Shown: positions 1,271-44,006, counted from the stretch's first letter. The stretch is 64,000 bases of DNA from Candidatus Latescibacterota bacterium (GCA_965208105.1 OZ242318.1:2048001-2112000), one strand, 5' to 3'. The notes: generated by a model from the letters alone, not told the origin. Numbers and translations: made by a program.

Positions 1271-1353
1271 GGCTAACGTTTTCGCCGTGCCCGAACCGCG
1301 AATGCGGTTGCGCGAAGGGCGCATGCCCGAAGCCGGACACGGACGTGTTAGCG
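1271..1353 (-). repeat. attC-like site 1 (family A, CCGTGCCC stem)
   Basis: Top strand CGCTAAC-acgt-CCGTGTCC...GGGCACGG-cgaaaac-GTTAGCC; near-identical to the sites at 2060, 2879, 7704 and 10176. Confidence 0.9.
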
Positions 1354-1487
1354 GCTGTGGGCAACCCGGCACATCGGGTTTCTGCACCAGATGGATAGTC
1401 CCAGAGAATCCACGATGAAAGACAACGGAACACTGCAATTGAGTGTTGCCGTTGCCACATGTGATCTTGTTCGATCCACTACTGTGG

Positions 1488-2021
1488 TTACTCGGGTATC
1501 TCGAACACTTTGGCCAAGAAGTCATCTTTGTACCCGTTATTAGCGTCAGCCGTAGGAATTCCCTTGTTTACTGCACTCATTTTCAACGCGGCGTATTCAT
1601 CAAATAAATCAGGATCACTTAGCATTCTGTCTCTGAAAATCATAGCATCTCGGTATCGCTCCGAGTCTCTCGAGGTAATGTGAGCATGTATATTGAATTG
1701 GTTGCCGTCTGTTACGATCCCGGCGAACATGACGGGGGAGCTGTCATTACCCGAAGGCTCTCGCCAATCAGCATCGTGAAAGCCAAGTGATTTCAAAGTA
1801 GAGATGACCGCTGGTATCCTGTGTTCGTCAATGAGGACGAAGATGTCAATGATCGGCTTGCTAACCATGCCGGCAATCGATGTGCTCCCGAAGTGTGCAA
1901 CTTTACATGAAGTGACTTCCGATTCAACCAATTTTTTTATTCTGGAGAATACTCTCCCATAGATTGGATTGTGTGGAAGCATTTTCACGGGTTCGTATCG
2001 GTACCTTACAAGTTGTGTCAC
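1488..2021 (-). CDS. Cassette gene: GrpB/UPF0157 family nucleotidyltransferase-like protein
   Basis: HFGSTSIAGMVSKPIIDI and FRDRM...EYAALK motifs typical of GrpB. Confidence 0.85.
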   Translation of the reverse strand: MTQLVRYRYEPVKMLPHNPIYGRVFSRIKKLVESEVTSCKVAHFGSTSIAGMVSKPIIDIFVLIDEHRIPAVISTLKSLGFHDADWREPSGNDSSPVMFAGIVTDGNQFNIHAHITSRDSERYRDAMIFRDRMLSDPDLFDEYAALKMSAVNKGIPTADANNGYKDDFLAKVFEIPE

Positions 2022-2059
2022 CTCTCACCCTTTCTAACGTCCATTTCTATGCCCATTCC

Positions 2060-2142
2060 CGCTAACGATATCGCCGTGCCCGAACCGCGAATGCGGTTGC
2101 GTAAAGGGCGTAACCCCGAAGCCGGGCACGGACGTGTTAGCC
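2060..2142 (-). repeat. attC-like site 2 (family A)
   Basis: cgctaac...gttagcc palindrome; the stop codon of the 2137-2829 gene lies in its R'' box. Confidence 0.92.
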
Positions 2143-2829
2143 GTTGGGCCCCGCTTTAGAGGACAACCATTGAGCCAGAATCTCGGCGACACTGCTCATT
2201 GCCATCTGAAGATTTGTCTTGAAATCATCAGGTGCGGATTCGTCGGCATCGTCCGTGACTCCTCTCATCTCAAGGTACGGGACTTCGCTGAACCTGCACG
2301 CGCGCGCCCCGCCGGCGCCCTCCCAGGCGACAACCAGAGCTTGAGTCCGCTCACGAACCTGCACTCTCCGACTGGGTTCGACGATGTCCTCATCACCGCT
2401 TGCGATTACACCGAAGTGGACTTCGTGGCCCTCCACAGCCGCCGGCATCCCACGCAAACTCTGGAGCGCTGTCGGATCACCCTCGAATGAGGGCACCGGA
2501 CTGTCGTTGAACCTGTTGATGTAATCGTGCTCAACCGTTCGGGTGCCGACCACCACATCCCCGACGCGCAGTCCATCCGCCAGCCCCCCAGCGGCACCTG
2601 TGCAAATCACGAGGTCCCAACCTGATCCCGCATCCAGAAGATGCTGCAGCTGAACTCCGAACTGAGCCTTGCCTGTGCCACCCACCGCAAGAGTGAGTCC
2701 GAGGTCGGGGAACTGGGTGACAGGCAGCCGCCCTATGGTCTTAGCTCGTTGATCATGCCCGGCCGCCACGAGATCGTCGCGAATGGCTTCCAGCTCTTCT
2801 AGCATTGGTGCTACAGCGGCCACTTGCAT
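2137..2829 (-). CDS. Cassette gene: MTA/SAH nucleosidase (PNP/UDP family 1)
   Basis: VAPMLEELE, GGTGKAQ, TGAAGGL, GDVVVG, ASGDED, WEGAG, RGVTDDAD motifs. Confidence 0.85.
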   Translation of the reverse strand: MQVAAVAPMLEELEAIRDDLVAAGHDQRAKTIGRLPVTQFPDLGLTLAVGGTGKAQFGVQLQHLLDAGSGWDLVICTGAAGGLADGLRVGDVVVGTRTVEHDYINRFNDSPVPSFEGDPTALQSLRGMPAAVEGHEVHFGVIASGDEDIVEPSRRVQVRERTQALVVAWEGAGGARACRFSEVPYLEMRGVTDDADESAPDDFKTNLQMAMSSVAEILAQWLSSKAGPNG

Positions 2830-2878
2830 CTAATTCACATCCCAAGTGTCCCTTTGTGCTTCCCTTAGGGGGCCTTTC

Positions 2879-2952
2879 GGCTAACGTCCCCGCCGTGCCC
2901 GAACCGCGAAGCGGTTGCGCGGAGGGCGTAGCCGGGCACGGTCGTGTTAGCT
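2879..2952 (-). repeat. attC-like site 3 (family A, shortened)
   Basis: ggctaac...gttagct; contains the stop codon of the 2947-3435 gene. Confidence 0.92.
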
Positions 2953-3435
2953 GCTGGCTCTGTTCTCTCTCAGCCAATTTCTCAAGAAATCTGCTCTATC
3001 TGACCTGCCAAGTGCTTCGTACGCCGAACACTCGTAAGCCAAGTTTAGCACAGGAACCTGAATGCCTTCCGTTTCGACTGACAGTCTGTGCTCTGCAGGA
3101 TCAATTGGGTCCTCCCATGATCCATCTGAAAGAAGTTTTTGCACATCTCCCATGATCTCTACTCGTACTCCTCCGATTTCAAGCACACCAAAGTGAGATC
3201 GGATATTGCCAGAAGTCGAAAAACCTACCTTCTCGGTGGAGTACTCGCACAAGAGGTCTTCGATTTTGTAGGCCCCCGCGCCATCTGTTTGGAGATCAAT
3301 ATCGTGGACATCCACCGGCACTCCTTGCAATCGAAAACCCAAACTGCCGGTGATTGCCCAATTCACGTCGGCCCCATCGAGGCGCTCAACGACCTTGGCT
3401 AATGCTTGTCCGATCGTAGTAGGAACTGTAACCAT
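2947..3435 (-). CDS. Cassette gene: nucleotidyltransferase (Pol-beta superfamily, lincosamide/aminoglycoside NTase-like)
   Basis: WAITGSLG...HDIDL (GS + DxD) signature. Confidence 0.75.
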   Translation of the reverse strand: MVTVPTTIGQALAKVVERLDGADVNWAITGSLGFRLQGVPVDVHDIDLQTDGAGAYKIEDLLCEYSTEKVGFSTSGNIRSHFGVLEIGGVRVEIMGDVQKLLSDGSWEDPIDPAEHRLSVETEGIQVPVLNLAYECSAYEALGRSDRADFLRNWLRENRASS

Positions 3436-3451
3436 GTGCTTCGGAGCTTGC

Positions 3452-3552
3452 AGCTAACGTATTGCCAGTTTGCGAACGCCGAGCTTGTCGAGGCGTTTCC
3501 CGAAGGGACAAGGCGCCAAAAGGCGCCGAAGCGCAACACCGTGCTGTTATGC
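3452..3552 (-). repeat. attC-like site 4 (family B, CGGTTTGCG stem)
   Basis: agctaac...gttatgc; similar to the sites at 4271, 6804, 9502 and 12505. Confidence 0.9.
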
Positions 3553-3568
3553 GAAGATCGCCCTGACC

Positions 3569-4219
3569 CTAGTTCCGAGAACGTTCCAAAGCCAATCTTG
3601 CTCCCAATCCAACAAATATCACCCCTGCAAGACGCTGAATGGCCATCATGGCCCGAGTCGATGGCCGGAGCGCCCTTGACATCCTTGCAGCAAAGGTCGC
3701 CACAACTAGGCACCAAACAGTACCAGTGAATACGAACGTGCTACCCAAGACAAAGAATGCGAATGGTCTATAAGAGCTACTAGCGTCGATAAACTGGGGC
3801 AGAAATGCCAGAAAGAACATTGCAACCTTCGGGTTTAGGAGATTCGTGACTATGCCTCGCCGATATGTTGTCGTGACCCCTCTGAGATGCATTCCTTCGT
3901 TCGAACAAATGTCTGTCGACTGTCGGCGAAGCAGCATATCAACTCCCAAGTATACGAGGTACGCAGCGCCGAGTAGCTTCACTGCTGCGAAGGCAGCTGG
4001 CGACGTGGTTATTATGGCCGAGAGTCCCAGTGTTGCTAGCGCAAGATGAATAACGCCACCCGTGCTGACGCCGAGTGCTGATGCAAGCCCTGATATCCGA
4101 CCCTCCGCGACGCTGCGCGTGACGATGTAGATGGTATCCTGACCTGGTGTGATATTCAGAATAATGCCCGCCGTTACGAACACCCAGAAATTTACAATGC
4201 CGAGTGATTGGATATCCAT
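3569..4219 (-). CDS. Cassette gene: LysE/RhtB family exporter
   Basis: ITPGQD, GAAYLVYLG and NLLNPKVAMFFLAFLPQF motifs. Start at MDIQSL (alternative start 4243). Confidence 0.92.
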   Translation of the reverse strand: MDIQSLGIVNFWVFVTAGIILNITPGQDTIYIVTRSVAEGRISGLASALGVSTGGVIHLALATLGLSAIITTSPAAFAAVKLLGAAYLVYLGVDMLLRRQSTDICSNEGMHLRGVTTTYRRGIVTNLLNPKVAMFFLAFLPQFIDASSSYRPFAFFVLGSTFVFTGTVWCLVVATFAARMSRALRPSTRAMMAIQRLAGVIFVGLGARLALERSRN

Positions 4220-4270
4220 GTCCACCTCACAAATATGTTCCAAAATTTGACGAATCTACGGAGCGAATTC

Positions 4271-4361
4271 ACATAACGTTATGCCGGTTTGCGAACCCAC
4301 GAAGTGAATTGCCAAAGGCTAAGGCGCGAACAGCGCCGAAGCGCAAACCGTGCTGTTACCC
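4271..4361 (-). repeat. attC-like site 5 (family B; degenerate R'')
   Basis: acataac...gttaccc. Confidence 0.85.
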
Positions 4362-4390
4362 GATGTGTCAAACCACCCGACGCGCCGGCG

Positions 4391-4771
4391 CTACTTCACT
4401 GGCTCTCGAGGAACGGCACGAATTGCATCATCTAGCTGGCGCGACAATGGCGAAAATTCGGCACCAGATTTCGGATCAATCACTGCAATCGTGTAGTCAA
4501 CTGTGGTATCAGCGTAAACCTGAACAACCTTGTAGTCGATGGACGGGTTCGGATCCACAACGCGGATTGAATACTTAGCGCCCAACTCAGGAACATGCAC
4601 ATGGCGCATTTGTTTCAAAGCGTGCTCGACCCTTCGAACCGAAGACGAGTCACCTTGAACGACCAGCGATAATGGCTCTTCAGCGGGCTCGTCGCAGCTA
4701 GTCACCAGGAGTGCCCCTACTGCTGAACAGATAATCCAGAGTCGTGGTCGCATCATGTTCTGATCTCGCAT
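4391..4771 (-). CDS. Cassette gene: hypothetical lipoprotein
   Basis: Signal peptide with lipobox-like LVTSC; ATG directly after GTTATAGGAA. Confidence 0.65.
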   Translation of the reverse strand: MRDQNMMRPRLWIICSAVGALLVTSCDEPAEEPLSLVVQGDSSSVRRVEHALKQMRHVHVPELGAKYSIRVVDPNPSIDYKVVQVYADTTVDYTIAVIDPKSGAEFSPLSRQLDDAIRAVPREPVK

Positions 4772-4774
4772 TTC

Positions 4775-4865
4775 CTATAACGGGTTGCCGATGTGCGAAC
4801 TCGCGGAGCGAGTTGGCGAAGCCCCAAGGCCCGAATGGGCCGCAGCGCACAACGCGCTGTTATAC
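4775..4865 (-). repeat. attC-like site 6 (family B variant)
   Basis: ctataac...gttatac with the 4/7 spacer geometry. Confidence 0.88.
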
Positions 4866-4906
4866 GGCGTGAATCTCTGCTTCAGATTGAGCGCTATTTT
4901 CCTTAC

Positions 4907-5242
4907 TCAAATAGAGCAGTGTTGAGCCACGGGCACGACATCCGCCTGGCTCCGATCGTCCGAACCGGCCAGTCGAATCATCGTCGACTCATGGAGGAAG
5001 TCGTCGATGTCAAACCGTCTTGTAGGCCCGGGCAAGCCAAAGGACTGCTGCTCGAGCCCCTTCGCGAGTGAGGACTTGCCAGCGCAGTTCATCCCAGGGA
5101 TGCCAACGAGGTAATGCCGGGCGACTCCCTCAGCTCCTTCCGCGATCCGCTGGGCCACATGGTTCAGCAGGCCCGACTGTCGGACGCGAACGGTCGTGGT
5201 GTCTTGATCCGTCATCTCGCTTCCGATCTCACGACTCGGCAT
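4907..5242 (-). pseudogene. Truncated P-loop (uridine kinase-like) gene
   Basis: LVGIPGMNCAGKSS Walker A and DIDDFLH, then a stop after only ~100 aa. Confidence 0.55.
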
Positions 5243-5269
5243 GGGCCGCCATGCCTGATGGTTGCAAAT

Positions 5270-5328
5270 GGATAACGTCGCGGATCAGGCGCGGCTACTC
5301 GCCGTCGCCTGCATCCGGCTGGTTCGGC
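5270..5328 (-). repeat. Canonical 59-bp attC with extrahelical G (foreign type)
   Basis: Top strand GCCGAAC-cagcc-GGATgCAGGCG...CGCCTGATCC-gcgac-GTTATCC: 5/5 spacers and one unpaired G in L''. Confidence 0.88.
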
Positions 5329-6707
5329 GACCCTTCGTTCACATTTCGGAACCTGAAACTGTAAAGATCGGTATCCTTCATCTCGAATCGCAGACGAATA
5401 GTCTGTCCAGCCAACCGCTTCACATCGCTGCCGCTCTTCCAGGCAACGACGCAATCGATTTCGTCGCCTTTTAGGAGGCGGCATGCAACCAGTCCAAAGC
5501 CGTCGAGCGGCGTGCCTCTTTCGTCCTGGACTTCCACTCGCAGACTGCCGCCTTCCCGTGTAACGAAGTTCAGGACAAGTTGCCCGCCATCGAACGTGAT
5601 GGGCTTGGTCACCAATTCGCCCCCTTGGGTCCCGGCCCGGACTGATGCAAATCCGTCAACCCGGTACGTGAACCGGCGCAGCCTGGACTGTCCGGCGTCC
5701 TCGTACCCTTCGGAAGCATAGACGGAGACCTCCTTGTCTCCGGTCCGCACTATCCCCCACTGCATGTAATTGCCGCGATTGCCCTGGCGATCTTTCGGAG
5801 CGGTACGCGGGATCACCGGTTCCTTGCCCCAGAAATAGAACCGACGCCCGTTGCGACTGGCCATCAAGTAGGGCTCCGTCGATTCATCTTTCATCAGCCG
5901 CGTCGGAAAGCCGATATAGATTTGCGGTGCCCGCTCGTACGGCAGCACGGCGTTCGTGTACAGTTGAAACCCATCGCCGTAGACATCGGTGTTGGCGTAC
6001 GACAAACGTTCTGACCGGTCGTATTGCCATCTCTCGAAATCGTCTGAGGTAACAGTACGAATCATGCGCTGCTGGCCGTCCCACTCACGAAAAAACATGA
6101 CGTATGTCTTACGCAATGCATCCCAGAAAACCAGGTTCTGGGAATCGAAGAAGTGGCGTTGCCCCACGTGGATCTTTCCATCCGGAACAAGAGTCGGGTC
6201 ACCCTTATTGACCGGATGCCAATGAATGGCGTCCGACGACACGTAACCGTAAAGGGCGGCACTCCCCCGCTCCGCGATTGCCTTGTACCGGGCATGGGAC
6301 GGGCAGTCTGGATTGGTGTCTTTGAAGGGCGTGAAAGCGCTCGTGCCCAGCCTGGGATCGGAACCCAGAATCAGGTTGTTGGTTTTCGAGCCGGCGAACT
6401 CCACTAGTCCAAGACTTGGCTTATGCCAATGGATACCATCAGTACTTTGCGCATAACCCACACGGGGATTCTTCCAGTCGTCCCGGCGGCGGCCGGAAGC
6501 GCGATAGTACATCCGGTACGTCTCTGCATCTTTGAATATGGTAGCAGACATCGATGTGCAACCCTCCCACTGCGCGTCATACACCGCCGCCACCTCCCGC
6601 GGCACGGGTCTATGCAAATGCAGACGGACATCGTCCCCAATCCTGTCGATCAGCGCGTCATCTACAAACAACTGCCTGCGGTCCGCGATACTCTTCGGTT
6701 GTGTCAT
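5295..6707 (-). CDS. Cassette gene: five-bladed beta-propeller glycoside hydrolase-like protein (GH32/GH43 clan)
   Basis: AGGAGG RBS then MTQPKSIADRRQLFVDD; YAQSTDGIHW, SSDAIHW and FDSQN repeats. The C-terminus reads into the attC. Confidence 0.75.
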   Translation of the reverse strand: MTQPKSIADRRQLFVDDALIDRIGDDVRLHLHRPVPREVAAVYDAQWEGCTSMSATIFKDAETYRMYYRASGRRRDDWKNPRVGYAQSTDGIHWHKPSLGLVEFAGSKTNNLILGSDPRLGTSAFTPFKDTNPDCPSHARYKAIAERGSAALYGYVSSDAIHWHPVNKGDPTLVPDGKIHVGQRHFFDSQNLVFWDALRKTYVMFFREWDGQQRMIRTVTSDDFERWQYDRSERLSYANTDVYGDGFQLYTNAVLPYERAPQIYIGFPTRLMKDESTEPYLMASRNGRRFYFWGKEPVIPRTAPKDRQGNRGNYMQWGIVRTGDKEVSVYASEGYEDAGQSRLRRFTYRVDGFASVRAGTQGGELVTKPITFDGGQLVLNFVTREGGSLRVEVQDERGTPLDGFGLVACRLLKGDEIDCVVAWKSGSDVKRLAGQTIRLRFEMKDTDLYSFRFRNVNEGSPNQPDAGDGE

Positions 6708-6803
6708 TTCTCCTCCTTGTGCCATGGCGGTCTGGCCGCCCAACAAGGCCAAAGCGACTTTCAAAATGCATTATAATAACACCAATTCGTTTTTTCTCAT
6801 GCC

Positions 6804-6900
6804 GTATAACGTTGTGCCGGTTTGCGAACGCCGAGCTTGTTGAGGCGTTGCCGAAGGCCAAGCCGCCGTAGGCGGCGAAGCGGAAACAGGTGTGTTAGAT
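6804..6900 (-). repeat. attC-like site 8 (family B)
   Basis: gtataac...gttagat. Confidence 0.9.
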
Positions 6901-6949
6901 GAAGTGGGATTCAAACCAATGCCAAATCTGCATAGAAAACATCTTGAGA

Positions 6950-7594
6950 TCAGTCGCCGGTGCCTTGTCCGGTCAGTTGCGTCGTTTGGTTCAACGGCTT
7001 TCTCGCCACGGCCTTGTTGATTGGGTGCGTGTGCCGAATACTACCCGGATGCTCATCCTCAATGGTGTAGCTCTCTTCTAATTCGATGTCCCAATCCTCA
7101 TAGAGTGAGAACAATTTGCCTTCTTGGAACAGTCCGAGGCAGTGCGCTTCCAGATCCGCTGGCGGAGGAATCCTGTCAGTGAAAACGACAACGACGTTCG
7201 TGCCGCCCGGAATTGTATGAGACTTGAATTCCGAGACTAACTTCATCCATTGTTTTCGAGCGATCAGATGCAGACACCCGTGCGAGACAATGAGGTCGAA
7301 CTTGCCAGAGAATGAATACTGACGCATATCAGCGACATCGGCGCGTATGCTGATTCCATCACGGTCCGCCAGCATTTGCAACTTCCGGATGCCTGACTCC
7401 GAAATATCGACTGCCGTAACATCAAACCCCTGCTTCGCAAGGAAGAGTGCATTCCGTCCTTCTCCGCAACCTAAGTCCAAAACTTTTGCTCCCTGCACCA
7501 TCTGATTTGCAAGTTCTAGGATCTCAGCACTCGGATCGCCAAATGTCTTAGCCTCAAGATCCGCGTACCCTTTGGTCCATGGAAAATCAATCAT
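6950..7594 (-). CDS. Cassette gene: class I SAM methyltransferase (TehB-like)
   Basis: VLDLGCGEGRNALFLAKQGFDVTAVDIS; C-terminal HPG..H.H. Start MIDFPW (ORF extends to 7705). Confidence 0.88.
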   Translation of the reverse strand: MIDFPWTKGYADLEAKTFGDPSAEILELANQMVQGAKVLDLGCGEGRNALFLAKQGFDVTAVDISESGIRKLQMLADRDGISIRADVADMRQYSFSGKFDLIVSHGCLHLIARKQWMKLVSEFKSHTIPGGTNVVVVFTDRIPPPADLEAHCLGLFQEGKLFSLYEDWDIELEESYTIEDEHPGSIRHTHPINKAVARKPLNQTTQLTGQGTGD

Positions 7595-7703
7595 CGAATT
7601 CACTGGCTGTCGAACTTGCGCTTGAGTGGCGACTATGAAAGTATATCTCCAGAAAAATATTGGGAGATACACTGCAAGGCCCCGACTATACTTTTCCCAT
7701 TTC

Positions 7704-7785
7704 ATCTAACGTTCTCGCCGTGCCCGAACCGCGAAGCGGTTGCGCGAAGGGCGAAAGCACGAAGCCGGGCACGGACGTGTTACCT
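7704..7785 (-). repeat. attC-like site 9 (family A)
   Basis: atctaac...gttacct. Confidence 0.92.
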
Positions 7786-7831
7786 GCCGTGGCCATCCTG
7801 CACGAATGAAAAATTCCTCGTAGCAGCCGAT

Positions 7832-8629
7832 TCACACCTCTGGCTTAAAGCCTACGGCGCGACACCACGCAAAGGCCGCATAGGCATCGGGAGATACCGA
7901 CCACTCCTCCCAGGCTTCGGTTATTGCTTTCAACTCGTCATCTGTAGCAAGTCCGTGTTCTTGCGCGTTCTGAACAAAGGCTCCGTCCTGGAAGTAGTGC
8001 ACTTGTCTGCTCCCAAACGTCTTCACTTTGTCCTCAGTTCCATAGCAGAGATATTTGGAAGTGGCAGTCACATCATTAAAACTCGCGCCATTCAATAGAC
8101 CGCGAAGTTCGCGGCCGCAATATGGACCGCCGGTGCCTTTCAGAGTCCAGAGCTGCTCTCGAATTGAATAGCTGCGTCGAAGTAAGGACGAACGTGGTCC
8201 GCTGACGATGAAACCACCGTATTCCACGTCTGCGATTCCTAATACCCCACCGGGTTTGAGGACGCGCTTCACCTCCAGGAGTGCGTCTTGTGGGCGATCC
8301 AGGGTCTCGGCCACCGAGTGGCAGAGGCAGGCATCGAAGCTATTGTCTGCGAAATCGAGTTTGTAAACATCACCGACGCAAAAATCAATGTTTCCAATCG
8401 CGTGGACGCGAGCATACGTTTCAGCATCTCCGAAACCATCATCGCTAAGATCAACACCGACTACGCTACGCACCTTCTCGGCCACACCCAAAGCAATGCT
8501 TCCGCCACCGCATCCTACGTCCAGGACTTTGAACTCTGGTGCCAAGTGTGGAAACAGGAACTCGGCATAATCGTCCGCGTTCCGGCCGGCCATGTAGTCT
8601 TCAAAGCTCATGCCAAAGGTGTCTTCCAA
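7832..8629 (-). CDS. Cassette gene: class I SAM-dependent methyltransferase (UbiE-like)
   Basis: VLDVGCGGG, LDFADNSFD and RVLKPGG motifs. Confidence 0.9.
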   Translation of the reverse strand: MEDTFGMSFEDYMAGRNADDYAEFLFPHLAPEFKVLDVGCGGGSIALGVAEKVRSVVGVDLSDDGFGDAETYARVHAIGNIDFCVGDVYKLDFADNSFDACLCHSVAETLDRPQDALLEVKRVLKPGGVLGIADVEYGGFIVSGPRSSLLRRSYSIREQLWTLKGTGGPYCGRELRGLLNGASFNDVTATSKYLCYGTEDKVKTFGSRQVHYFQDGAFVQNAQEHGLATDDELKAITEAWEEWSVSPDAYAAFAWCRAVGFKPEV

Positions 8630-8645
8630 TGCGGAAAGCCATGGC

Positions 8646-8803
8646 AGGTAACGTTCTTAAGTGGCCGAACTGGCAAAGCCACAACTCATCCTAACCGCTG
8701 TGCCGCTCGGGCAGCCACTACTCCTTCCCAACGTCCGCACGTTAGGGCCAGTTGGGACGGAGGCCGCCGCAGGGCGGCCGCAGCCGGCCACTGTGTGTTA
8801 TGC
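8646..8803 (-). repeat. attC-like site 10 (long, 158 bp, unique sequence)
   Basis: aggtaac...gttatgc; AGTGGCCG/CGGCCACT stem with the same 4/7 spacers. Confidence 0.8.
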
Positions 8804-8856
8804 GAAGGTGCCCCCCGAGGCTACCCGCACCGCGTTCCACTACCCTCACAATGCTG

Positions 8857-9450
8857 TCATGTCGAGGTCCTCAATAGATGACGAACGGGCTCGTCAGACC
8901 ACAGCTGCACCTCAATGAACCGCTCCACAGGTGTCCCCCAGTAGTTGTCGTATTCAACTCGAGGCATTCCGTACTCCCCGATCACGGCCTCAAGTTCATC
9001 GATGAGGTACACGCGATCGTGATACGGTCTCGCCTCCTGGCGCGGGATTCCGAAATCCGCCCCGAAACCCATGGCCTCGAAACTGTCAGAATAGGTGAAG
9101 CTAGTGACGGGTGACGGGAGGTCGTTCAGAGCGACCACGACTTCCTTGGTGTCGGGAGCGAGCTGCTTGAACCACTCGGATCTACCCAGGACAAAGTAGT
9201 GTGGAGCGCTCCGCTCGGGCCGTCCGCCCCGGGCGACGAAGAGGCCTCGGAGCCGTTCCTCCGTCAGCCGTCGCATTTCAATATACTTGCGGCCGAACGG
9301 CCGCTTGTGATCACGGACTCGTCGGAGTTCCTGAAGCCCCTGCCGCACACCCTCAAGGTCTGTCTCAGCGAGGTCTGACAGGTTCAGAAACGGATGTCTG
9401 TCGGACAGGTGATAGTGCGTTACGAATTCTGGAATCTTCAATCGCGCCAT
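8857..9450 (-). CDS. Cassette gene: hypothetical protein
   Basis: 197-aa ORF filling a cassette, GGAG RBS; no family recognised. Confidence 0.75.
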   Translation of the reverse strand: MARLKIPEFVTHYHLSDRHPFLNLSDLAETDLEGVRQGLQELRRVRDHKRPFGRKYIEMRRLTEERLRGLFVARGGRPERSAPHYFVLGRSEWFKQLAPDTKEVVVALNDLPSPVTSFTYSDSFEAMGFGADFGIPRQEARPYHDRVYLIDELEAVIGEYGMPRVEYDNYWGTPVERFIEVQLWSDEPVRHLLRTST

Positions 9451-9501
9451 CTCCGACTACCGCTAGGACCCCTCCCTTCCAAATACGTTCCTGGCACTTT
9501 T

Positions 9502-9591
9502 GCATAACGTTCTGCCGGTTTGCGAACCCGCGCAGCGGGTTGCCGAAGGCCAAGGCGCGTCTGCGCCGCAGCGAAAACCGATGTGTTATCT
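9502..9591 (-). repeat. attC-like site 11 (family B)
   Basis: gcataac...gttatct. Confidence 0.9.
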
Positions 9592-9634
9592 GACATGCAA
9601 TTCGGTGAGCTCCAAGTCGAATAGATGCATTCCT

Positions 9635-10084
9635 CTATACGAACTCCTGAGCACGTACAGTGAATGGTGAAGTTGTATATGACTGAAACAAAACCCGCCC
9701 ATCAAATGACAGAAGCTGCCGAAGCCTTCGGCTGTAGCCAGGGTGATCTATCATCTTATCGGCATCTGTCTTCTGAACCCACGAAACATCAAGAGTCTCC
9801 TCTCCAATCCGGGCGTCGCCAGACAACCAAGATCCAAGGAAATCGAAAATAACTCGACGCTCACTAAGGTTGGTATACACCCCAACAAGTCGATTAGCCG
9901 AGGCCAGGATGTTGGCCTCTTCTCTGACTTCACGGATGACCCCATCGAGGATGGACTCACCTTCCTCTATTTGGCCACCTGGAAACTCCCACCCCCTTCG
10001 TGGGGTTTTAACCAGAAGGACATCGTCTCCTCGTTCCACGAGAATTCCAGCAGCGACGATATGTTTCGGTGGGTTCGGATGCAT
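9635..10084 (-). CDS. Cassette gene: NUDIX hydrolase
   Basis: Nudix box PGGQIEEGESILDGVIREVREEAN. Confidence 0.92.
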   Translation of the reverse strand: MHPNPPKHIVAAGILVERGDDVLLVKTPRRGWEFPGGQIEEGESILDGVIREVREEANILASANRLVGVYTNLSERRVIFDFLGSWLSGDARIGEETLDVSWVQKTDADKMIDHPGYSRRLRQLLSFDGRVLFQSYTTSPFTVRAQEFV

Positions 10085-10175
10085 TTGTTGCCTTCAGGAT
10101 GACCTTAAATTCCGGTCGATTCGGAATATCCAACCGGACGGGGATGGTAAGATAGTAGCCAAAAAAATGCATGTC

Positions 10176-10258
10176 AGATAACGTTCTCGCCGTGCCCGAA
10201 CCGCGAATGCGGTTGCGCGAAGGGCGAATGCCCGAAGCCGGGCACGGACGTGTTATAG
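10176..10258 (-). repeat. attC-like site 12 (family A)
   Basis: agataac...gttatag. Confidence 0.92.
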
Positions 10259-10302
10259 GATGTGCCAGATTGGGTGGAGGGGAAAGACATTCCACCAGCA
10301 CA

Positions 10303-10799
10303 TTATGTCCAATATTTTCGGCAGATAAAGGCCAATTCATAGAGAGCCGCGAAATCCTGGTCGTCAGCGGAAAACAGATCTGTTGCCTTATCGTACTCGA
10401 TAGTCCGCACTTCAGTGATCGAACCTCCCGCACATGAATGGGGTGGGGGAAATGAGGTAGCCTGGGCTGGGCCTCTTGTGAAACGCAATGGTACATCCCG
10501 ATCGGTTTGACGTGGCTCAAAGCTGCGCCCGTTTCCTCCATCATTTCCCGATGTGCAGCCTGCAACTAGCTCTCCCCAGGTTCCAGCGTCCCGCCAGGCA
10601 ACACCCACCTGCCATTCTCGCGACGGGTCACGAGGCACTCAGTCGCCGAGACAAATGGAATTACATAGGACGAGCCGCAACACGAATCTACGACTTCGCG
10701 ATCGAAATTGACGAAATCAATGCCCTGCCTCCCGCGATCCCGCAATGCTGGAAGATCTCGGACAAATCTGTCGAAATCTGAGTCATCCAGAGATTTCAC
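10303..10799 (-). pseudogene. Cassette gene: NUDIX hydrolase, disrupted
   Basis: LPGGTLEPGES*LQAAHREMMEETG: in-frame TAG at 10566-10568 inside the Nudix box, plus a frameshift/deletion near 10437. Confidence 0.8.
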
Positions 10800-10822
10800 A
10801 GCACTTCCCTATCTGGCATTTC

Positions 10823-10910
10823 CTATAACGTTCCCGCGGGCTGCGAACCCGTGCAGCGGGTTTTCTGCGAAGGCGCGAATGCGCCGAAGCCGTAGCCCGT
10901 CGTGTTAGCC
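10823..10910 (-). repeat. attC-like site 13 (family C, CGGGCTGCG stem)
   Basis: ctataac...gttagcc. Confidence 0.88.
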
Positions 10911-10962
10911 GTGTGTGCAGCCCGCACTGGCCTTGCCAGGACGGCAAGGCCTCTTGATTTGC

Positions 10963-11514
10963 TTAGGCATCCGTGGGACCAGGCGACCAGCCGATCGATT
11001 GGGCCCAACCGTCCGCACGGGACATGATTTCCCAGATTATTGGATTTTTTGAATCGGTGTACCTCTTCCTGTCCTCTCGGTACTTCATAGCCAACTCCCG
11101 TTTAACCTTCTCGTAACGTTTCTGCTCTTCCAAGTGTTCTCGGAGATAGTCACGAAACAACAAGGCGAACTGCTCAGACCAGCTGCCAGCCTTGCGGACG
11201 TGGATATGTGTTCGTCTCTTCCCTGGCAGTTCTCGAAAATACCGCTTTGTCCTTTCAGGGTTGTCCTTCCGCCAGATGTAGCCAATTTGCTCCAGCGGAA
11301 CTCGAAACGGATCAACGGGGTCGAGTTCCTTCACTGAAATCTGCACATCAATGATGGGCTTGGCTGCCAGACCTGCGATTGAGGTAGATCCAATATGGTC
11401 AATCCGGATCGCCACGTTCCCAAGAGCTTCCTTCATCCTGATCCCGAGCTCGCGGAAGAGCATTGGCCACTCATCCGAGTAGTCCTTGATCTCAATCACG
11501 TAAGGTGTCGTCAT
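10963..11514 (-). CDS. Cassette gene: GrpB/UPF0157 family protein
   Basis: IDHIGSTSIAGLAAKPIIDVQ, HIHV and LLFRDYLR motifs; start MTTPY. Confidence 0.92.
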   Translation of the reverse strand: MTTPYVIEIKDYSDEWPMLFRELGIRMKEALGNVAIRIDHIGSTSIAGLAAKPIIDVQISVKELDPVDPFRVPLEQIGYIWRKDNPERTKRYFRELPGKRRTHIHVRKAGSWSEQFALLFRDYLREHLEEQKRYEKVKRELAMKYREDRKRYTDSKNPIIWEIMSRADGWAQSIGWSPGPTDA

Positions 11515-11584
11515 TGATCGACTGCTCAGTTCATGGATTTGGCGGCGCAGGAGGCGCCGCCGCATTCTTTGCGGGCTGCATTAC

Positions 11585-11687
11585 GGCTAACGTTCTCGCG
11601 GGCTGCGAACCTGCCGCAGGCAGGTTTCCTGCGAAGGCCGAATGGCCGGAGCCGCAGCCCGCCGCAGCGTAAACCGCTGTGTTATCG
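11585..11687 (-). repeat. attC-like site 14 (hybrid family B/C)
   Basis: ggctaac...gttatcg; family C body with an extra family B arm. Confidence 0.85.
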
Positions 11688-11712
11688 GAAGGTCAATACA
11701 TCCCTCGCGTGC

Positions 11713-12489
11713 CTACTTGACCGCCAAAAGGTTGATCCTGCGGAAGGTTTCGAAACACGTGCCATCCGTTTGACGCGTCTCCTCAACCATTCGTTTTGTT
11801 ACAACCTCGTGAAATCGACTCCCTGTTTCAGAATCGAGGTACTGCTTGAATGGTATCACTGCCGGATGGTCAACCCAACCTAACATTGTCTGCGTATCGG
11901 GGAAGAATCGATCAGCGTTCTCTCCCCATACCCGCAGACTCGAAAAGGATGAGTTTCCTACGAGCTTCTCGTATGCTTCCACTGAAGGCATGTACCAAGG
12001 CCATTCGAAATCTGAAAAAGCTCCGGAAAATTCCTCGCTGGCCATTACCTCCAAGGCTACACGATTGAACGTGCCGCAGTTCCCCTCACCTGCAAAATTA
12101 ACCCTAACTACGCCAGAGCGTTTGAGAGCACGACAAAAGATCTCGAGGAGCATCTGGTGGTCCTTGATCCAGTGCAAAGTGGCATTGGAGAATATCACAT
12201 CGAACTCGTCCTGAAATTCTGCGTCGAGAATATCGATCAGTCGGAACGAAAGATTGGCTCGGTGGATATTCTGTGCCGCCTCGATCATTCCTTCAGAGGT
12301 GTCGATTCCAACAACTGAACCGGCGGAAACTGCGTCAGCGAGATTCGCGGTGAGGGTGCCGTCGCCGCAACCTACATCCAGAATGCACTCGTTGCCGGCG
12401 AGATCAAGTTCGTCGATCAATCGCGCTCCCCATTCTTTCTGGTGAGCGGACGTCTCCTGGTAGCGCTTTCCGTCGAAATCTACTCTCAA
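11713..12489 (-). CDS. Cassette gene: trans-aconitate methyltransferase-like SAM methyltransferase
   Basis: ILDVGCGDG and FDVIFSNATLHWIKD. Probable TTG start at 12489; the ORF-track extension reads through the attC. Confidence 0.85.
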   Translation of the reverse strand: MRVDFDGKRYQETSAHQKEWGARLIDELDLAGNECILDVGCGDGTLTANLADAVSAGSVVGIDTSEGMIEAAQNIHRANLSFRLIDILDAEFQDEFDVIFSNATLHWIKDHQMLLEIFCRALKRSGVVRVNFAGEGNCGTFNRVALEVMASEEFSGAFSDFEWPWYMPSVEAYEKLVGNSSFSSLRVWGENADRFFPDTQTMLGWVDHPAVIPFKQYLDSETGSRFHEVVTKRMVEETRQTDGTCFETFRRINLLAVK

Positions 12490-12504
12490 CTCACTTTGAC
12501 TTTC

Positions 12505-12600
12505 CGATAACGTTCCGCCGGTTTGCGAACGCCGAGCTTGACGAAGGGTTGCCGAAGGCCAAGGCGCGACAGCGCCGCAGCGCAAACCGTGCTGTTAGAT
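12505..12600 (-). repeat. attC-like site 15 (family B)
   Basis: cgataac...gttagat. Confidence 0.92.
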
Positions 12601-12624
12601 GAAGCTCTCTCAGAAGTCAGATCT

Positions 12625-12990
12625 TTACGCGTCAATGGCTTCACGTGTAACGGATGGTTCGAAAAAACGCTCCTGGAACTCCGTCAAAGCCAGGATCTGC
12701 TCGTCTGAGTAGTCTCTACCGGCAGGTACGACAATGAGCTTATCATCATCGTCGTCCGATCGTTGAATGACGGCGATACATCTGCCTGTAAAAGCCTCTA
12801 TCGGTTTGAAGACACCCAGGATATAGGCGTCCATATTTTCTCCGTCAGGCGCCGGAACGTCCGGAAGAAATCCGTAGTTGACAGGATAGATGAAGCCCGC
12901 TTCAGGATGCCTGGAGCCAAGGGGTCGATCAATCGTAAGATCGACCATTTCTCCGATGAACTTCCTCGCATCCACGAAATTCCCCGCCAT
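12625..12990 (-). CDS. First cassette gene: short inorganic pyrophosphatase family protein
   Basis: YPVNYGFLP, DGENMDAY and DDDDDKLI motifs. Confidence 0.88.
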   Translation of the reverse strand: MAGNFVDARKFIGEMVDLTIDRPLGSRHPEAGFIYPVNYGFLPDVPAPDGENMDAYILGVFKPIEAFTGRCIAVIQRSDDDDDKLIVVPAGRDYSDEQILALTEFQERFFEPSVTREAIDA

Positions 12991-13043
12991 GGTCGTTTAA
13001 TCTCCCAGCCATGTTGAAGTGAGGCAACGCTGCTCCGAGTTTC

Positions 13044-13080
13044 ATCTAACTGCCTGTATGCGAACCATTGGTTCGTATAA
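13044..13080 (-). other. attI-like primary recombination site (crossover G/TT at 13050/13049)
   Basis: The last GTTAGAT is not preceded by an attC stem; it lies between the first cassette and the integrase. Confidence 0.75.
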
Positions 13081-13260
13081 TGGCCGCCAAGTGCTACCTA
13101 TCTGAAACGAAGGTACCTATTGTTGTGAACAGTCGCAACCAGTATCCTCGAGGTCGTATATTCTCGTAACTCTTTGCGACTGTTCGAGATATATCGATTC
13201 TTCTGAGGTCCGGCGCATCTGGCATGCATTTCTCTGGCAAAGGTTTGGAGTATGCACGCA

Positions 13261-14190
13261 ATGCGGAAATATCGCGGACACCCGGGCCTGACCGATGAAG
13301 AGGTAGCTGTCCTCAGCCGGGTCGAGTTGGAGCTGAAGCTGAGGGGATACGCCAGGAAGACGCGGAAGTCGTACATGGGCCACTGCCGGCGATTCCTTCA
13401 ATGGAAACGGGGCTACCGCGGCTAAGGGCAGGAGGAAGTGCGGTCGCATCTGGGTTGGCTCCTCGCCCGGGGGGTGAGCCGCTCCGCCTTCAACACCACC
13501 TACAGTGCCTTGAGCTTTCTCTATAGGGAAGTTCTGATGCAGCCCGCCTCCCTGGAGAGGCTGCGAAGACCGAGGGGCGGACGGCAGCTTCCCGAAATCC
13601 TCAGCCAGCGGGAAGTGCTGCGTATCCTCGATTCTCTCCGCAATCCGAAGCACCGGCTCATCCTTGCCCTGCTGTATGCCGGGGGCCTGCGTGTGGGAGA
13701 GGTCGTGCGTCTCAAGGTGAGCGATATCGACAGCGATCGCATGCTGATCCGCGTTCGCCAAGGCAAGGGACGAAAAGACCGATATACCTTGCTGCCCCGG
13801 TCGATTCTCGAGGATCTCCGGTCTTACTGGAAGGCGTACCGGCCGTCGACATGGCTGTACCCCGGAGCCCGGGAAGGACGGCATCTCACCGAACGGTCGG
13901 TGCAGAAGATGTTCTCCCGTGCGGTCGTCGCCGCGGGAATCCGCAAACGGGTGACCGTGCACACCCTGAGACACAGCTTTGCGACGCACCTGCTCGAAGG
14001 GGGAACCGATCTGCGCTACATCCAGGAGCTCCTCGGGCACAGAAACTCGAAAACGACGGAAATCTACACCCACGTGCAGCGCAAGGACCTGGTGCGCATC
14101 GAGAGTCCGCTCGACGCGCTGTTGGGTCACGGCGGTAGCCCTGAGCAGGTTAGAGGACGCACCTTTCCGCGCCACGGCGATGAGAGGTGA
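13261..14190 (+). pseudogene. Integron-associated tyrosine recombinase (N-terminal SAM-like + catalytic domain) with in-frame TAA at codon 55
   Basis: MRKYRGHPG...ELKLRGYARKTRKSYMGH...YRG*GQEEVRSHL; catalytic GLRVGE, GKGRKDR, HTLRHSFATHLLE, LLGH and TTEIYTH are intact. Confidence 0.88.
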
Positions 14191-43559: not shown

Positions 43560-44006
43560 ATGACCCCACTTCCACGCTACTACGCACCCATCCGCCACCC
43601 TCTCGTCGGTCCCCTTCCCGGTGTCTCCGGTTATAGGACCTACCCTGCTCCGGCGGTTTCGCGCCGGGACGAGGAGGGCTTCTCCAGTTGCTCGGCATGT
43701 CCTTGCCATCATGCCGTCGCTGCCACCCCGCCGAAGTAAAGCAGCCGTCTCATTCAGCCTTCGGCTGCCCATGCTGCCTTCGCCGTACGGTTGTCGGCTC
43801 GGCCTTCGGGGCTTCGCATTTTCGGGGCCATCTCTGCGTTCACTTTCGTTACGGCCCGATGACTCGCAGTCTCCCCAGGGAGACTCTGTCGATAGGCTTC
43901 AGGATGTTGGTTTCCCGCCACCCTGCTATCCAAGCTACGGGGCCGCTGACTCCTACCCCGGCAGGACTGTCCTCCTGGTGAACATGCCAGCCTTCGCTGG
44001 ACACAC
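43560..44006 (-). mobile_element. Group II intron 5' fragment (DI-DIII), inserted in domain V of another intron
   Basis: Starts GTGTGTCCAGCGAAGGCTGG directly after ...GTCCGGTT; typical AACTGGAGAAGCCC and GGCGGATGGG..CGTAGTAGCG segments; no RT. Confidence 0.7.

Follow-up and report, generated by a model that had tools for sequence, protein, structure and literature searches.

Locus architecture

Gene cassettes in an array of a Candidatus Latescibacterota bacterium are bracketed by inverted repeats that differ from one cassette to the next, which raises the question of what these ends are and what they might do. The window, a stretch of 64,000 nucleotides of this genome, contains a one-directional cassette array running leftwards on the minus strand from position 13050, a divergent gene on the plus strand for an IntI-like tyrosine recombinase without the IntI-specific domain (13252-14190), and an attI-like region (13044-13251, minus strand) with the palindrome CGAACC-N3-GGTTCG. 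Integrase gene, attI site and one-way array make up the architecture of an integron, and the integrase orthologues in seven genomes likewise adjoin, and are divergent from, such arrays. The window holds 14 cassettes and 14 attC sites (74-158 nt), imperfect hairpins bounded by RYYYAAC and GTTRRRY boxes, that is, of the integron attC type (57-141 nt). A genome search with the attC model R1 gave 84 matches in the own genome.

The earlier note had listed ten inverted-repeat pairs at the cassette ends, and all ten were recovered at their coordinates. Counting from attI, with every cassette on the minus strand, the first one (12511-13049; ORF 12625-12990; attC 12505-12600) has stem halves at 12594-12607 and 13037-13050 that match at 13/16 positions (13/14 over the 14-nt halves). 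It is followed by a methyltransferase cassette (11591-12510; attC 11585-11687; halves 11681-11696 and 12496-12511; 15/16), whose ORF, listed as 11713-12585, is probably shorter, and by a GrpB cassette (10829-11590; ORF 10963-11565; attC 10823-10910; halves 10904-10926 and 11570-11591), in which 9 and 11 matched positions surround a 3-versus-2-nt bubble and the fold has 9 extension bp. Next come the cassette 10182-10828 (ORF 10303-10638; attC 10176-10258; halves 10252-10270 and 10811-10829; 17/19), a NUDIX cassette with a perfect pair (9508-10181; ORF 9635-10084; attC 9502-9591; halves 9585-9599 and 10168-10182; 15/15) and the cassette 8652-9507 with its long attC at 8646-8803 (ORF 8857-9450; halves 8797-8812 and 9493-9508; 14/16). 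The methyltransferase cassette 7710-8651 (ORF 7832-8629; attC 7704-7785) has a pair that the earlier note missed (7779-7793 and 8638-8652; 14/15), and another methyltransferase cassette (6810-7709; ORF 6950-7705; attC 6804-6900; halves 6894-6909 and 7695-7710) matches at 15/16, with position 11 as the single mismatch. A second missed pair (4859-4872 and 6797-6810; 13/14) encloses the two-gene cassette 4781-6809 (ORFs 4907-5242 and 5295-6764; attC 4775-4865); this places the hairpin at 5270-5328 inside the cassette, where it marks no boundary. Further left lie an aminoglycoside-2''-adenylyltransferase-like cassette (2885-3457; ORF 2947-3435, Pfam PF10706; attC 2879-2952; halves 2946-2962 and 3442-3458; 14/17), a PNP_UDP_1 cassette (2066-2884; ORF 2137-2829; attC 2060-2142; halves 2136-2152 and 2869-2885; 14/17) and a second Pfam-annotated GrpB cassette (1277-2065; ORF 1488-2021; attC 1271-1353; halves 1347-1363 and 2050-2066), matching at 13/16 (14/17 over 17 positions) with a bubble at 9-11 and 8 extension bp in the fold.

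The stem is missing from 2/14 cassettes. In the LysE cassette (3458-4276; ORF 3569-4243; attC 3452-3552) the ends 3546/4277 pair to position 10 only (9/10) and then fall out of register. In the cassette 4277-4780 (ORF 4391-4771; attC 4271-4361) the ends 4355/4781 match to position 4 only, with the 7-nt box itself mismatched and 0 extension bp.

An integrase without the IntI-specific domain

The integrase scored best against the family TIGR02249 (NCBIfam), but at 234.2 bits it stays below the cut-off of 265, and the match covers only profile positions 2-179 and 235-315. A protein alignment revealed that 7/7 family members lack about 41 residues of the IntI-specific region, which 5/5 canonical IntI possess. 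This additional domain of IntI, about 35 amino acids near patch III, is thought to define integron integrases. The protein matches PF00589 at 8.2e-41 and carries the catalytic R-K-H-R-H-Y residues, of which R147, K172 and R240 are invariant and H237, H263 and Y272 nearly invariant in the alignment. A quick maximum-likelihood tree of 42 proteins placed the 15 canonical IntI in one clade at 99% SH-aLRT and the window integrase outside it, within a sister group of domain-less recombinases (80% support; outgroups on long branches). Among solved structures, the best sequence match is PDB 2a3v, the VchIntIA-VCR complex (1.4e-46), and the XerA structure 4a8e matches at 4.3e-38. Similar to Xer and archaeal XerA recombinases, the protein has a SAM-like N-terminal domain and a catalytic domain with no insertion near patch III. 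However, it scores below the equivalog cut-offs for XerA (211.6 vs 220), XerD (181.5 vs 329.6) and XerC (179.7 vs 335.15), and its gene heads a cassette array instead of lying at a chromosome-dimer resolution site. The score against NF040815 is 211.6 bits.

No canonical IntI was found in the own genome by profile search, and within the phylum it occurs in 17/168 genomes. Two genomes hold both canonical IntI and this lineage's attC type, not adjacent to each other, and canonical IntI may act there in trans on these sites. In Cury et al. 2016 (PMC4889954) an attC cluster lacking an integron integrase is a CALIN, and under the rule PF00589 plus intI_Cterm the present array would count as a CALIN with a non-IntI recombinase next to it. 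The same study found domain-less recombinases beside fewer than three attC sites and judged them not to be IntI, whereas the recombinase here stands at the head of about 60 attC sites, and its orthologues likewise head arrays in seven genomes.

The window gene contains a nonsense codon (TAA, 13423-13425), in frame, at which P0001 and contigs of runs X7 and X2 have a sense codon. Stop codons also interrupt the orthologues of G103 and G106, two overlapping matches in G102 suggest a frameshift, and G104 and G101 yielded partial matches only. Therefore, many such arrays may be inactive fossils.

Cassette ends pair beyond the R box

With position 1 set at the G of the conserved GTT, the cassette ends of the window match at 81/126 of positions 8-16, against 49.4 ± 5.2 in shuffled pairings (0 of 20000). 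Pairs with an imperfect 7-nt box were removed before counting (29/73, 25/67 and 69/147, the last including duplicates). For the own genome, this left 44 cassettes with a perfect box from 73 adjacent attC pairs, the 29 others being dropped because they probably span a missed site. Positions 12-16 gave 165 matches in these arrays, with 79.7 ± 7.3 expected, and 285 in 11 related genomes, with 135.9 ± 8.9 expected (0 of 5000 shuffles in both cases). Chance is thus excluded as the source of the complementarity, which is cassette-specific. Positions 12-16 each use three to four Watson-Crick pair types, and complementarity declines gradually over positions 16-19. As in integron attC sites, the R'' box finds its complement in the 5' end of its own cassette and not in the neighbouring R': over positions 4-7 the mean match is 3.64 of 4 with the cognate 5' end, 1.93 with the same-site partner and 2.10 with non-cognate ends. 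In 41/44 cassettes the ORF stop lies at least 17 nt before the end of R'', so that the extension is usually non-coding. Part of it is family consensus and not private, namely G8 and, in about half of the cassettes, T12/G13.

Two earlier remarks were borne out, namely that mismatches cluster at positions 9-11 and that cassette starts have an A at position 11. Position 11 matches in only 6/44 cassettes; read on the bottom strand it is a conserved T·G wobble, found in 36/44 cassettes of the own genome and 65/78 of the relatives (82-83%), and read on the top strand it is an A·C mismatch. Position 8 is a conserved G:C pair. These data show that the stem is cassette-specific, kept through different base pairs and common to arrays in 12 genomes. 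Taken as a whole, the evidence is best explained if the "terminal inverted repeats" are the split outer stem of this lineage's attC hairpin, which we consider probable.

Such a stem might also be frozen history, if cassettes were born with a complete long hairpin that the crossover merely splits, the pairing reflecting youth instead of need. The gradual fading at the outer positions would agree with this, Cury 2016 (PMC4889954) gives the mechanism of cassette genesis as unknown, and present-day selection may be weak because several integrases are broken. However, the architecture is fixed over 12 genomes in its G:C at 8, its T·G at 11 and its varied pairs at 12-16, the ORFs leave the extension region free, and one particular mismatch of one polarity is not expected to survive in a decaying relic, which makes this origin unlikely.

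Comparison with canonical integrons

The main canonical control comprised one bacterial class and class 1 integrons; a second sampling, from two other groups, yielded too small a number of attC for use. In 42 cassettes beside full-profile IntI, match rates at positions 8-11 are 0.79, 0.64, 0.69 and 0.48, pairing extends to about position 10-12 and is at background by position 13, and positions 12-16 give no signal (53 matches vs 49.7 expected; 1528 of 5000 shuffles). The median scored helix is 16 in this lineage and 10 in the canonical set (Mann-Whitney p = 8e-11). Ten class 1 cassettes have helices 3-12 long and match at 0-2 of 5 in positions 12-16, with 12 positions paired in aadB and catB8. 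Equally long extensions, which would have counted against the earlier claim, are therefore not the norm in canonical cassettes. That claim, of repeats reaching well beyond the 7-bp core, stands in that they are longer than canonical ones; since canonical pairing also runs to about 10-12, passing 7 bp alone is not unusual.

The sites also differ in their extrahelical bases. In canonical attC these occupy positions 16, (20) and 23/24 of the '' arm, six bp apart, according to Nivina 2016 (PMC5027507). Our script recovered such bulges in 86 canonical sites, at 16 (30 sites), 20 (12) and 23/24 (18+13), and found none at 16/20/23-24 in 60 attC of the own genome, where one base instead bulges out at position 11 on the '' arm (30 sites) and 3-4 nt do so at position 9 on the ' arm (35 sites). 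The proposal that the stem acts "in place of extrahelical bases" thus agrees with the absence of the canonical bulges, but other bulges are present.

Classical integrons, class 1 and sedentary chromosomal alike, share with this locus the divergent integrase, attI, the one-way array of mostly single-gene, promoterless-looking cassettes, the imperfect hairpin with its two boxes, the R'' box matching its own 5' end and a stop codon sometimes inside R''. They differ in an integrase that has the IntI-specific region, belongs to the IntI clade and exceeds the TIGR02249 cut-off, in the position of the bulges, and in an R-arm helix of about 10 bp, compared with about 16 bp and a T·G wobble at 11 here. 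The long stem could still be an ordinary feature if all attC sites paired beyond the box and the array were a sedentary integron or CALIN served by canonical IntI, an enzyme that does occur in the phylum; canonical cassettes, aadB and catB8 among them, indeed pair past the box. Against this stand the absence of signal at positions 12-16 in two canonical sets, the lack of canonical IntI in the own genome, the different bulge pattern, and the finding of a single attC by model R1 (E = 0.0066) in 20 canonical-IntI flanks from 13 genomes of the phylum, so that we regard it as quite unlikely.

Folds of the reconstructed junctions

Folding of the circle junctions, a check that the earlier note had suggested, gave a hairpin that continues for about 9 bp beyond the 7 bp of the R box, and the folds, together with the pair types per position, support the small internal bubble or wobble proposed at positions 9-11. 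The joining ends form an extension of at least 5 bp in 13/14 window cassettes. Over the 14 cassettes, the mean free energy is -35.4 kcal/mol for the circle junction, -26.5 for the array context (Wilcoxon p = 0.0002) and -26.4 with the 7-bp box only. The bottom-strand junction is more stable than the top-strand one (-32.8) by 2.6 kcal/mol (p = 0.0006), and only the bottom strand of canonical attC recombines. In these folds, which are predictions of the energy model only, the central spacer leaves 3-5 nt of the ' arm and 0-1 nt of the '' arm unpaired; canonical attC have an unpaired spacer of 5-6 nt on each arm.

Inverted repeats at both ends of a gene could also pair in the cassette transcript, as a stability stem or terminator with no role in DNA recombination. 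Yet the strand of the ORFs is the top one, which has the A·C mismatch at position 11, the wobble-compatible version being antisense, the halves are 400-1900 nt apart, and the repeats abut the crossover triplet exactly; a role in RNA is accordingly very improbable.

Mobility of the cassettes

Alignment of the attI region from seven genomes revealed conservation up to GTTA (13050-13047, minus strand), followed by a different first cassette in each. Second copies in G000 were found for the cassettes 2066-2884 (2037308-2038181, 97.8%) and 7710-8651 (2043542-2044529, 95.7%), and the first cassette with the attI region recurs at 1079553-1080249. In run X7, one contig joins the cassette 2066-2884 to 9504, and another, of 1957 nt, spans exactly 4856-6812, the two-gene cassette. 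Together these copies, contigs and the alignment support the view that the cassettes are mobile units; the crossover falls within the invariant GTTA, consistent with the proposed G/TT without fixing the base. That each unit is a small transposable element bracketed by its terminal inverted repeats is hardly credible, as copies of one transposon family have their repeats in common but each unit here has its own, target-site duplications are absent, an attC hairpin with AAC/GTT boxes is present in every unit, and the array adjoins an attI site and a tyrosine recombinase.

A proposed mechanism

In the split-stem reading, crossover inside the conserved GTTA would leave one half of the stem at the 5' start of the linear cassette and the other just upstream of its own R'' box. 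The halves would meet only in an excised cassette, circular or single-stranded, lengthening the R-arm duplex from 7 to about 16 bp, some six bp more than in classical integrons, with position 11 of the recombining bottom strand as a T·G wobble or 1-nt bulge. Since the extension cannot pair in the array context, selection would operate during insertion (circle x attI).

The canonical extrahelical bases are read by the IntI domain, and both are missing here, the bases from the attC sites and the domain from the adjacent, syntenic integrase. Ordinary tyrosine recombinases need a full-length duplex arm. If the Xer-like integrase shares this need, the long stem would supply such an arm on the folded strand, and the asymmetric bulges and a wobble that favours the bottom strand may jointly help to choose strand and orientation. 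A partial parallel is the entry of the CTX phage into dif1, where the substrate of XerC/XerD, tyrosine recombinases with no IntI-type domain, is single-stranded DNA folded into a hairpin; its full-length arms and unpaired centre imitate a duplex site. That case involves a single phage attachment site and the host Xer pair, with no attI/attC system, unlike the cassette array of the Latescibacterota locus.

We tentatively propose, at somewhat less than even confidence, that the locus represents an undescribed working class of integron-like gene capture, in which an I2-less Xer-like integrase, having never had the I2 domain or having done without it, reads a folded site through a full-length duplex R arm, while the T·G wobble and the asymmetric bulges set strand and orientation. 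No published description of such a system was found in the literature. Escudero 2016 (PMC4792948) describes the origin of attC hairpins and of the IntI domain as a "chicken-and-egg" problem, to which the proposed class, if real, would offer a natural answer.

The cassette array and its attC sites

Segment 1271-13050 of the window belongs to a large cassette array, of which it is the end nearest the integrase; both the cassette ORFs and the top strands of the attC sites lie on the minus strand. On this strand the attC sites are laid out as R''(nnnTAAC)-5 nt-L''...L'-6 nt-R'(GTTAnnn), and R'' contains a stop codon in some of the cassettes. The attC finder initially used, which relied on an ungapped 8-mer stem, was discarded as too strict. 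A covariance model, termed R1, was built from 13 window sites with 7-nt boxes and without flanks, and its search against the window's own genome (G000) revealed 84 attC sites, about 60 of them in a main array from 2011280 to 2060600 and the remainder in smaller clusters. The literature links group II introns to integron cassettes. An Rfam scan of the whole window yielded no attC family, the sole match being a group II intron (domain D1-D4, RF02003, 107 bits) at 43844-43980 on the minus strand, 30 kb from the array. The sequencing runs that contain the stretch carry the labels marine, sponge and coral reef metagenome. The cassette products include a member of the aminoglycoside-2''-adenylyltransferase family PF10706 (2947-3435, minus strand, 2.7e-25), three SAM methyltransferases, two GrpB proteins, one NUDIX protein, one LysE transporter and one phosphorylase.

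The cassette ends pair beyond the R box

To analyze the pairing, the bases downstream of each GTTA on the plus strand were compared with the reverse-complemented bases leading up to the next TAAC. Positions are counted from the G of the conserved GTT as position 1, and the extension is the pairing beyond the 7-nt R box. All ten end pairs claimed in the earlier note hold, with the match counts reported there, and two further pairs were found at 7779/8652 and 4859/6810. The latter pair makes the 59-nt AAC...GTT hairpin at 5270-5328 internal to a two-gene cassette. This hairpin separates the two ORFs, and neither neighbour matches its box flanks; it may represent a dead or foreign attC incorporated into the cassette by fusion. 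The ends of the cassette 3546/4277 pair up to position 10 only. Those of the cassette 4355/4781 (window 4277-4780) are unmatched even in the 7-nt box (GTTACCC versus GTTATAG), and this cassette may have arisen by an off-register or non-cognate exchange.

In the window, positions 8-16 show 81 matches out of 126, against 49.4 ± 5.2 upon random pairing of the ends (0 of 20000 randomizations). The partner within the same attC of the array performs about as a random partner, with 3.57 versus 3.24 matches of 9. Among 73 adjacent site pairs of the own genome, 44 with a perfect 7-nt box were kept and 29, which probably span a missed site, were dropped; the 44 cassettes gave 165 matches at positions 12-16, compared with 79.7 ± 7.3 expected (0/5000).

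The extension has a regular anatomy in these 44 cassettes. Position 8 is a G:C pair in 43, and positions 9 and 10 are paired in 84% and 61%, respectively. At position 11 only 14% are Watson-Crick pairs, and in 36 of the 44 a T of the bottom-strand 5' arm faces a G of the 3' arm; on the top strand the equivalent of this T·G wobble is an A·C mismatch. Some cassettes, such as 10904/11591, have instead a bubble with one extra base on the R'' side. Pairing resumes at positions 12-16 (89, 80, 77, 68 and 61%), each position using three or four different Watson-Crick pairs, and falls to background from position 20 onwards. An ATG is found at positions 11-13 of 20 of the 44 cassette starts, but it was rejected as the ORF start, as the longest ORF begins there in a single cassette. 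At the other end, 41 of the 44 cassettes have an ORF that stops at least 17 nt short of the R'' end; therefore, the extension is non-coding.

The related genomes show the same pattern. R1-type attC sites occur in 51 of 151 genomes of the phylum. In twelve stretches from 11 relatives, 171 sites form 147 adjacent pairs; 78 of these pairs are distinct and have a perfect box. These give 285 matches at positions 12-16 against 135.9 ± 8.9 (0/5000) and the T:G at position 11 in 65 of the 78 cassettes, counts that are not independent because three genomes of one genus share cassettes.

Comparison with canonical integrons

The earlier note held that its reading would fail if equally long extensions were the norm in canonical integron cassettes. 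Twenty stretches upstream of integrases matching the whole TIGR02249 profile above its cut-off, from another bacterial class, served as the control. Their attC sites were located by a constrained hairpin scan, which recovered the window's own sites as a positive control. Out of 67 adjacent pairs, 42 with a perfect box match at positions 4-7 were kept and 25 dropped. Their cognate ends pair at positions 8-12 with frequencies of 0.79, 0.64, 0.69, 0.48 and 0.36 and reach background from position 13; positions 12-16 give 53 matches versus 49.7 ± 5.6 (1528/5000), thus no signal. The scored helix has a median of 10 (maximum 13) in the canonical set compared with 16 in the own genome (Mann-Whitney p = 8e-11), whereas the uninterrupted run length does not differ between them (p = 0.19). 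Ten class 1 cassettes from five plasmids have helices 3-12 positions long and match at 0-2 of the 5 positions 12-16; the plasmid integrons in L233 (qnrVC4 array) and L229 (Kovacikia plasmid) were excluded for uncertain bounds, and two of the four cassettes in L231 were bounded. Pairing that runs somewhat past the 7-bp box is thus ordinary; the second tier at positions 12-16 and the fixed wobble are not.

The textbook pairing length of cassette ends is 7. A side result of the control, small but general, is that the canonical cassettes' own ends pair over about 10-12 positions (loci L164-L183 and L230-L235) rather than 7, for which the available parts of the literature contained no statement.

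Two further control sets were tried. The flanks of canonical IntI from the same phylum (20 stretches, 13 genomes), intended as the closest control, were unusable, with one weak R1 match, and a generic AAC...GTT hairpin scan of them gave GC-rich noise and no arrays. A second canonical sampling of 10 IntI loci from two other groups yielded at most two hairpins per locus, too few to count.

The extrahelical bases were compared by one script that walks the outer stem of each folded bottom strand in both site sets. In the predicted folds of 86 canonical sites, single bulges on the '' arm are found at 16 (30), 20 (12), 23 (18) and 24 (13). Positions 16, 20 and 23/24 on this arm are the extrahelical-base positions given in PMC5027507. 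The predicted folds of 60 own-genome sites show no enrichment at these positions with the same script; they have instead one bulged base at 11'' (30) and a bulge of 3-4 nt at 9' (35).

Folding of the circle junctions

Each of 14 window cassettes was rebuilt as a circle junction, with its end joined to its own start and 17-nt flanks, and folded with DNA parameters, as the earlier note had proposed. At least five pairs beyond the box are present in 13 of the 14 minimum-energy structures. The bottom strand of the circle junction has a mean free energy of -35.4 kcal/mol, compared with -26.5 kcal/mol in the array context (Wilcoxon p = 0.0002), -26.4 kcal/mol for the 7-bp box only and -32.8 kcal/mol for the top strand of the circle junction (p = 0.0006 for bottom versus top). 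Together, the pairing statistics and the folds support the proposal of a long hairpin in the excised circle, with a small wobble or bubble at positions 9-11.

The adjacent integrase

To the right of the array and the attI-like region lies a divergent tyrosine recombinase gene (13252-14190) with an in-frame TAA at 13423-13425. A sense codon takes the place of this stop in P0001, the closest relative protein, as it does in contigs from two metagenome runs; contigs from run X19, probably the source, do not differ from the window. The break is therefore a strain polymorphism. Intact relatives of 309 aa exist. The best family is the integron integrase model TIGR02249, below cut-off (234 versus 265 bits), covered at profile positions 2-179 and 235-315 only. 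Alignment of the window protein with six close relatives of 294-309 aa (73-98% identity) and five canonical IntI showed that about 41 residues, present in all five canonical IntI, are missing from the other seven, which retain the catalytic residues. Among solved structures, VchIntIA (2a3v) matches best, over two stretches, and XerA comes next. A quick tree built from 42 proteins, with its outgroups on long branches, places canonical IntI in a clade at 99% support and the window family outside it, grouped with other recombinases lacking the extra domain at 80% support. G000 has no canonical IntI, and the protein cluster listing gave no names for the family. A search of genome contigs for relatives returned distant generic recombinases (40-58% identity) through the common catalytic motif, which were discarded.

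Orthologues of the integrase (76-98% identity) adjoin arrays, divergently oriented, in G000 and six related genomes (G107, G103, G106, G040, G104 and G102). Those in G103 and G106 carry stop codons, the two overlapping matches in G102 suggest a frameshift, and those in G104 and G101 are partial matches only. In addition, domain-less relatives of 53-58% identity adjoin arrays in G087, G058 and G099. The contig G041:C1 encodes a 314-aa recombinase in six copies, with 45-46% identity to the window integrase; one adjoins an attC array, and they are therefore probably a separate multi-copy mobile element.

The attI region and cassette mobility

Seven genomes share the attI-like intergenic region as far as GTTA, immediately after which each continues into a different first cassette. 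Therefore, the crossover lies somewhere within GTTA, which is compatible with the G/TT step claimed in the earlier note. A conserved palindrome CGAACC-N3-GGTTCG in attI (window 13051-13110) is located 10 nt from the crossover and resembles the attC inner hairpin and L arm, as well as repressor boxes of the GAAC...GTTC type. By eye, G8 and A9-A11 at the cassette starts look like the GAA within CGAACC, the conserved motif of the L arm, and attI resembles the 3' half of attC without the 4-nt bulge.

The view of the cassettes as real mobile units is supported by their recurrence with new neighbours and by reordered joints. Two window cassettes have second copies elsewhere in the same array, 97.8% and 95.7% identical and flanked by different neighbours. 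The first cassette together with attI (window 12508-13203) is duplicated with 92.7% identity at G000:C1:1079553-1080249, at the end of a second attC cluster, where no integrase match was found. The sponge metagenome run X7 contains the same cassettes in another order, with joints within attC (2887 to 9504 and 6839 to 12546), and one of its contigs is exactly the two-gene cassette; as assembled contigs, these show presence rather than frequency. No junction of a circularized single cassette appeared among the contigs, a result that does not count against circles, as contigs of this kind do not reveal circular or rare forms.

Discussion

The observation of extended cassette-end pairing is confirmed, and the structural inference and the mobility are supported. 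We propose that the repeats form the outer stem of the R arm in the attC hairpin, split by the crossover. As both halves lie within one cassette, pairing between them is possible only once it is excised, and this, together with their upkeep through varied base pairs, points to selection at the step between the circle and attI. The domain-less recombinase might bind the R arm as a full-length duplex, and the T·G wobble, which is A·C on the other strand, might contribute with the asymmetric bulges to the choice of strand and orientation.

In the current account of integron recombination, the extrahelical bases of attC are partnered with the IntI-specific I2 domain, which is the defining feature of integrons in software and reviews. 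PMC4889954 defines IntI by the extra domain and judges recombinases without it, found beside fewer than three attC, not to be IntI; its Supplementary Figure S1 may show related recombinases. PMC4792948 takes I2 to have co-evolved with the extrahelical bases and poses a chicken-and-egg question. Literature searches covering abstracts and passages of PMC5027507, PMC4889954, PMC4792948 and PMC7439510 revealed neither attC stems extended past the R box nor arrays headed by domain-less integrases.

Here, an array of about 60 sites lacks both the extrahelical bases and I2, as do related arrays of at least 11 other genomes, and its hairpin architecture is different from the canonical one and equally regular. 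If the adjacent recombinase is the active enzyme, I2 would not be required for the capture of hairpin cassettes, and many CALINs, the attC clusters lacking an integron integrase, may be full systems of a different type. A concrete, mutable candidate for the choice of strand and orientation would then be the long R arm, with the wobble on one of its strands.
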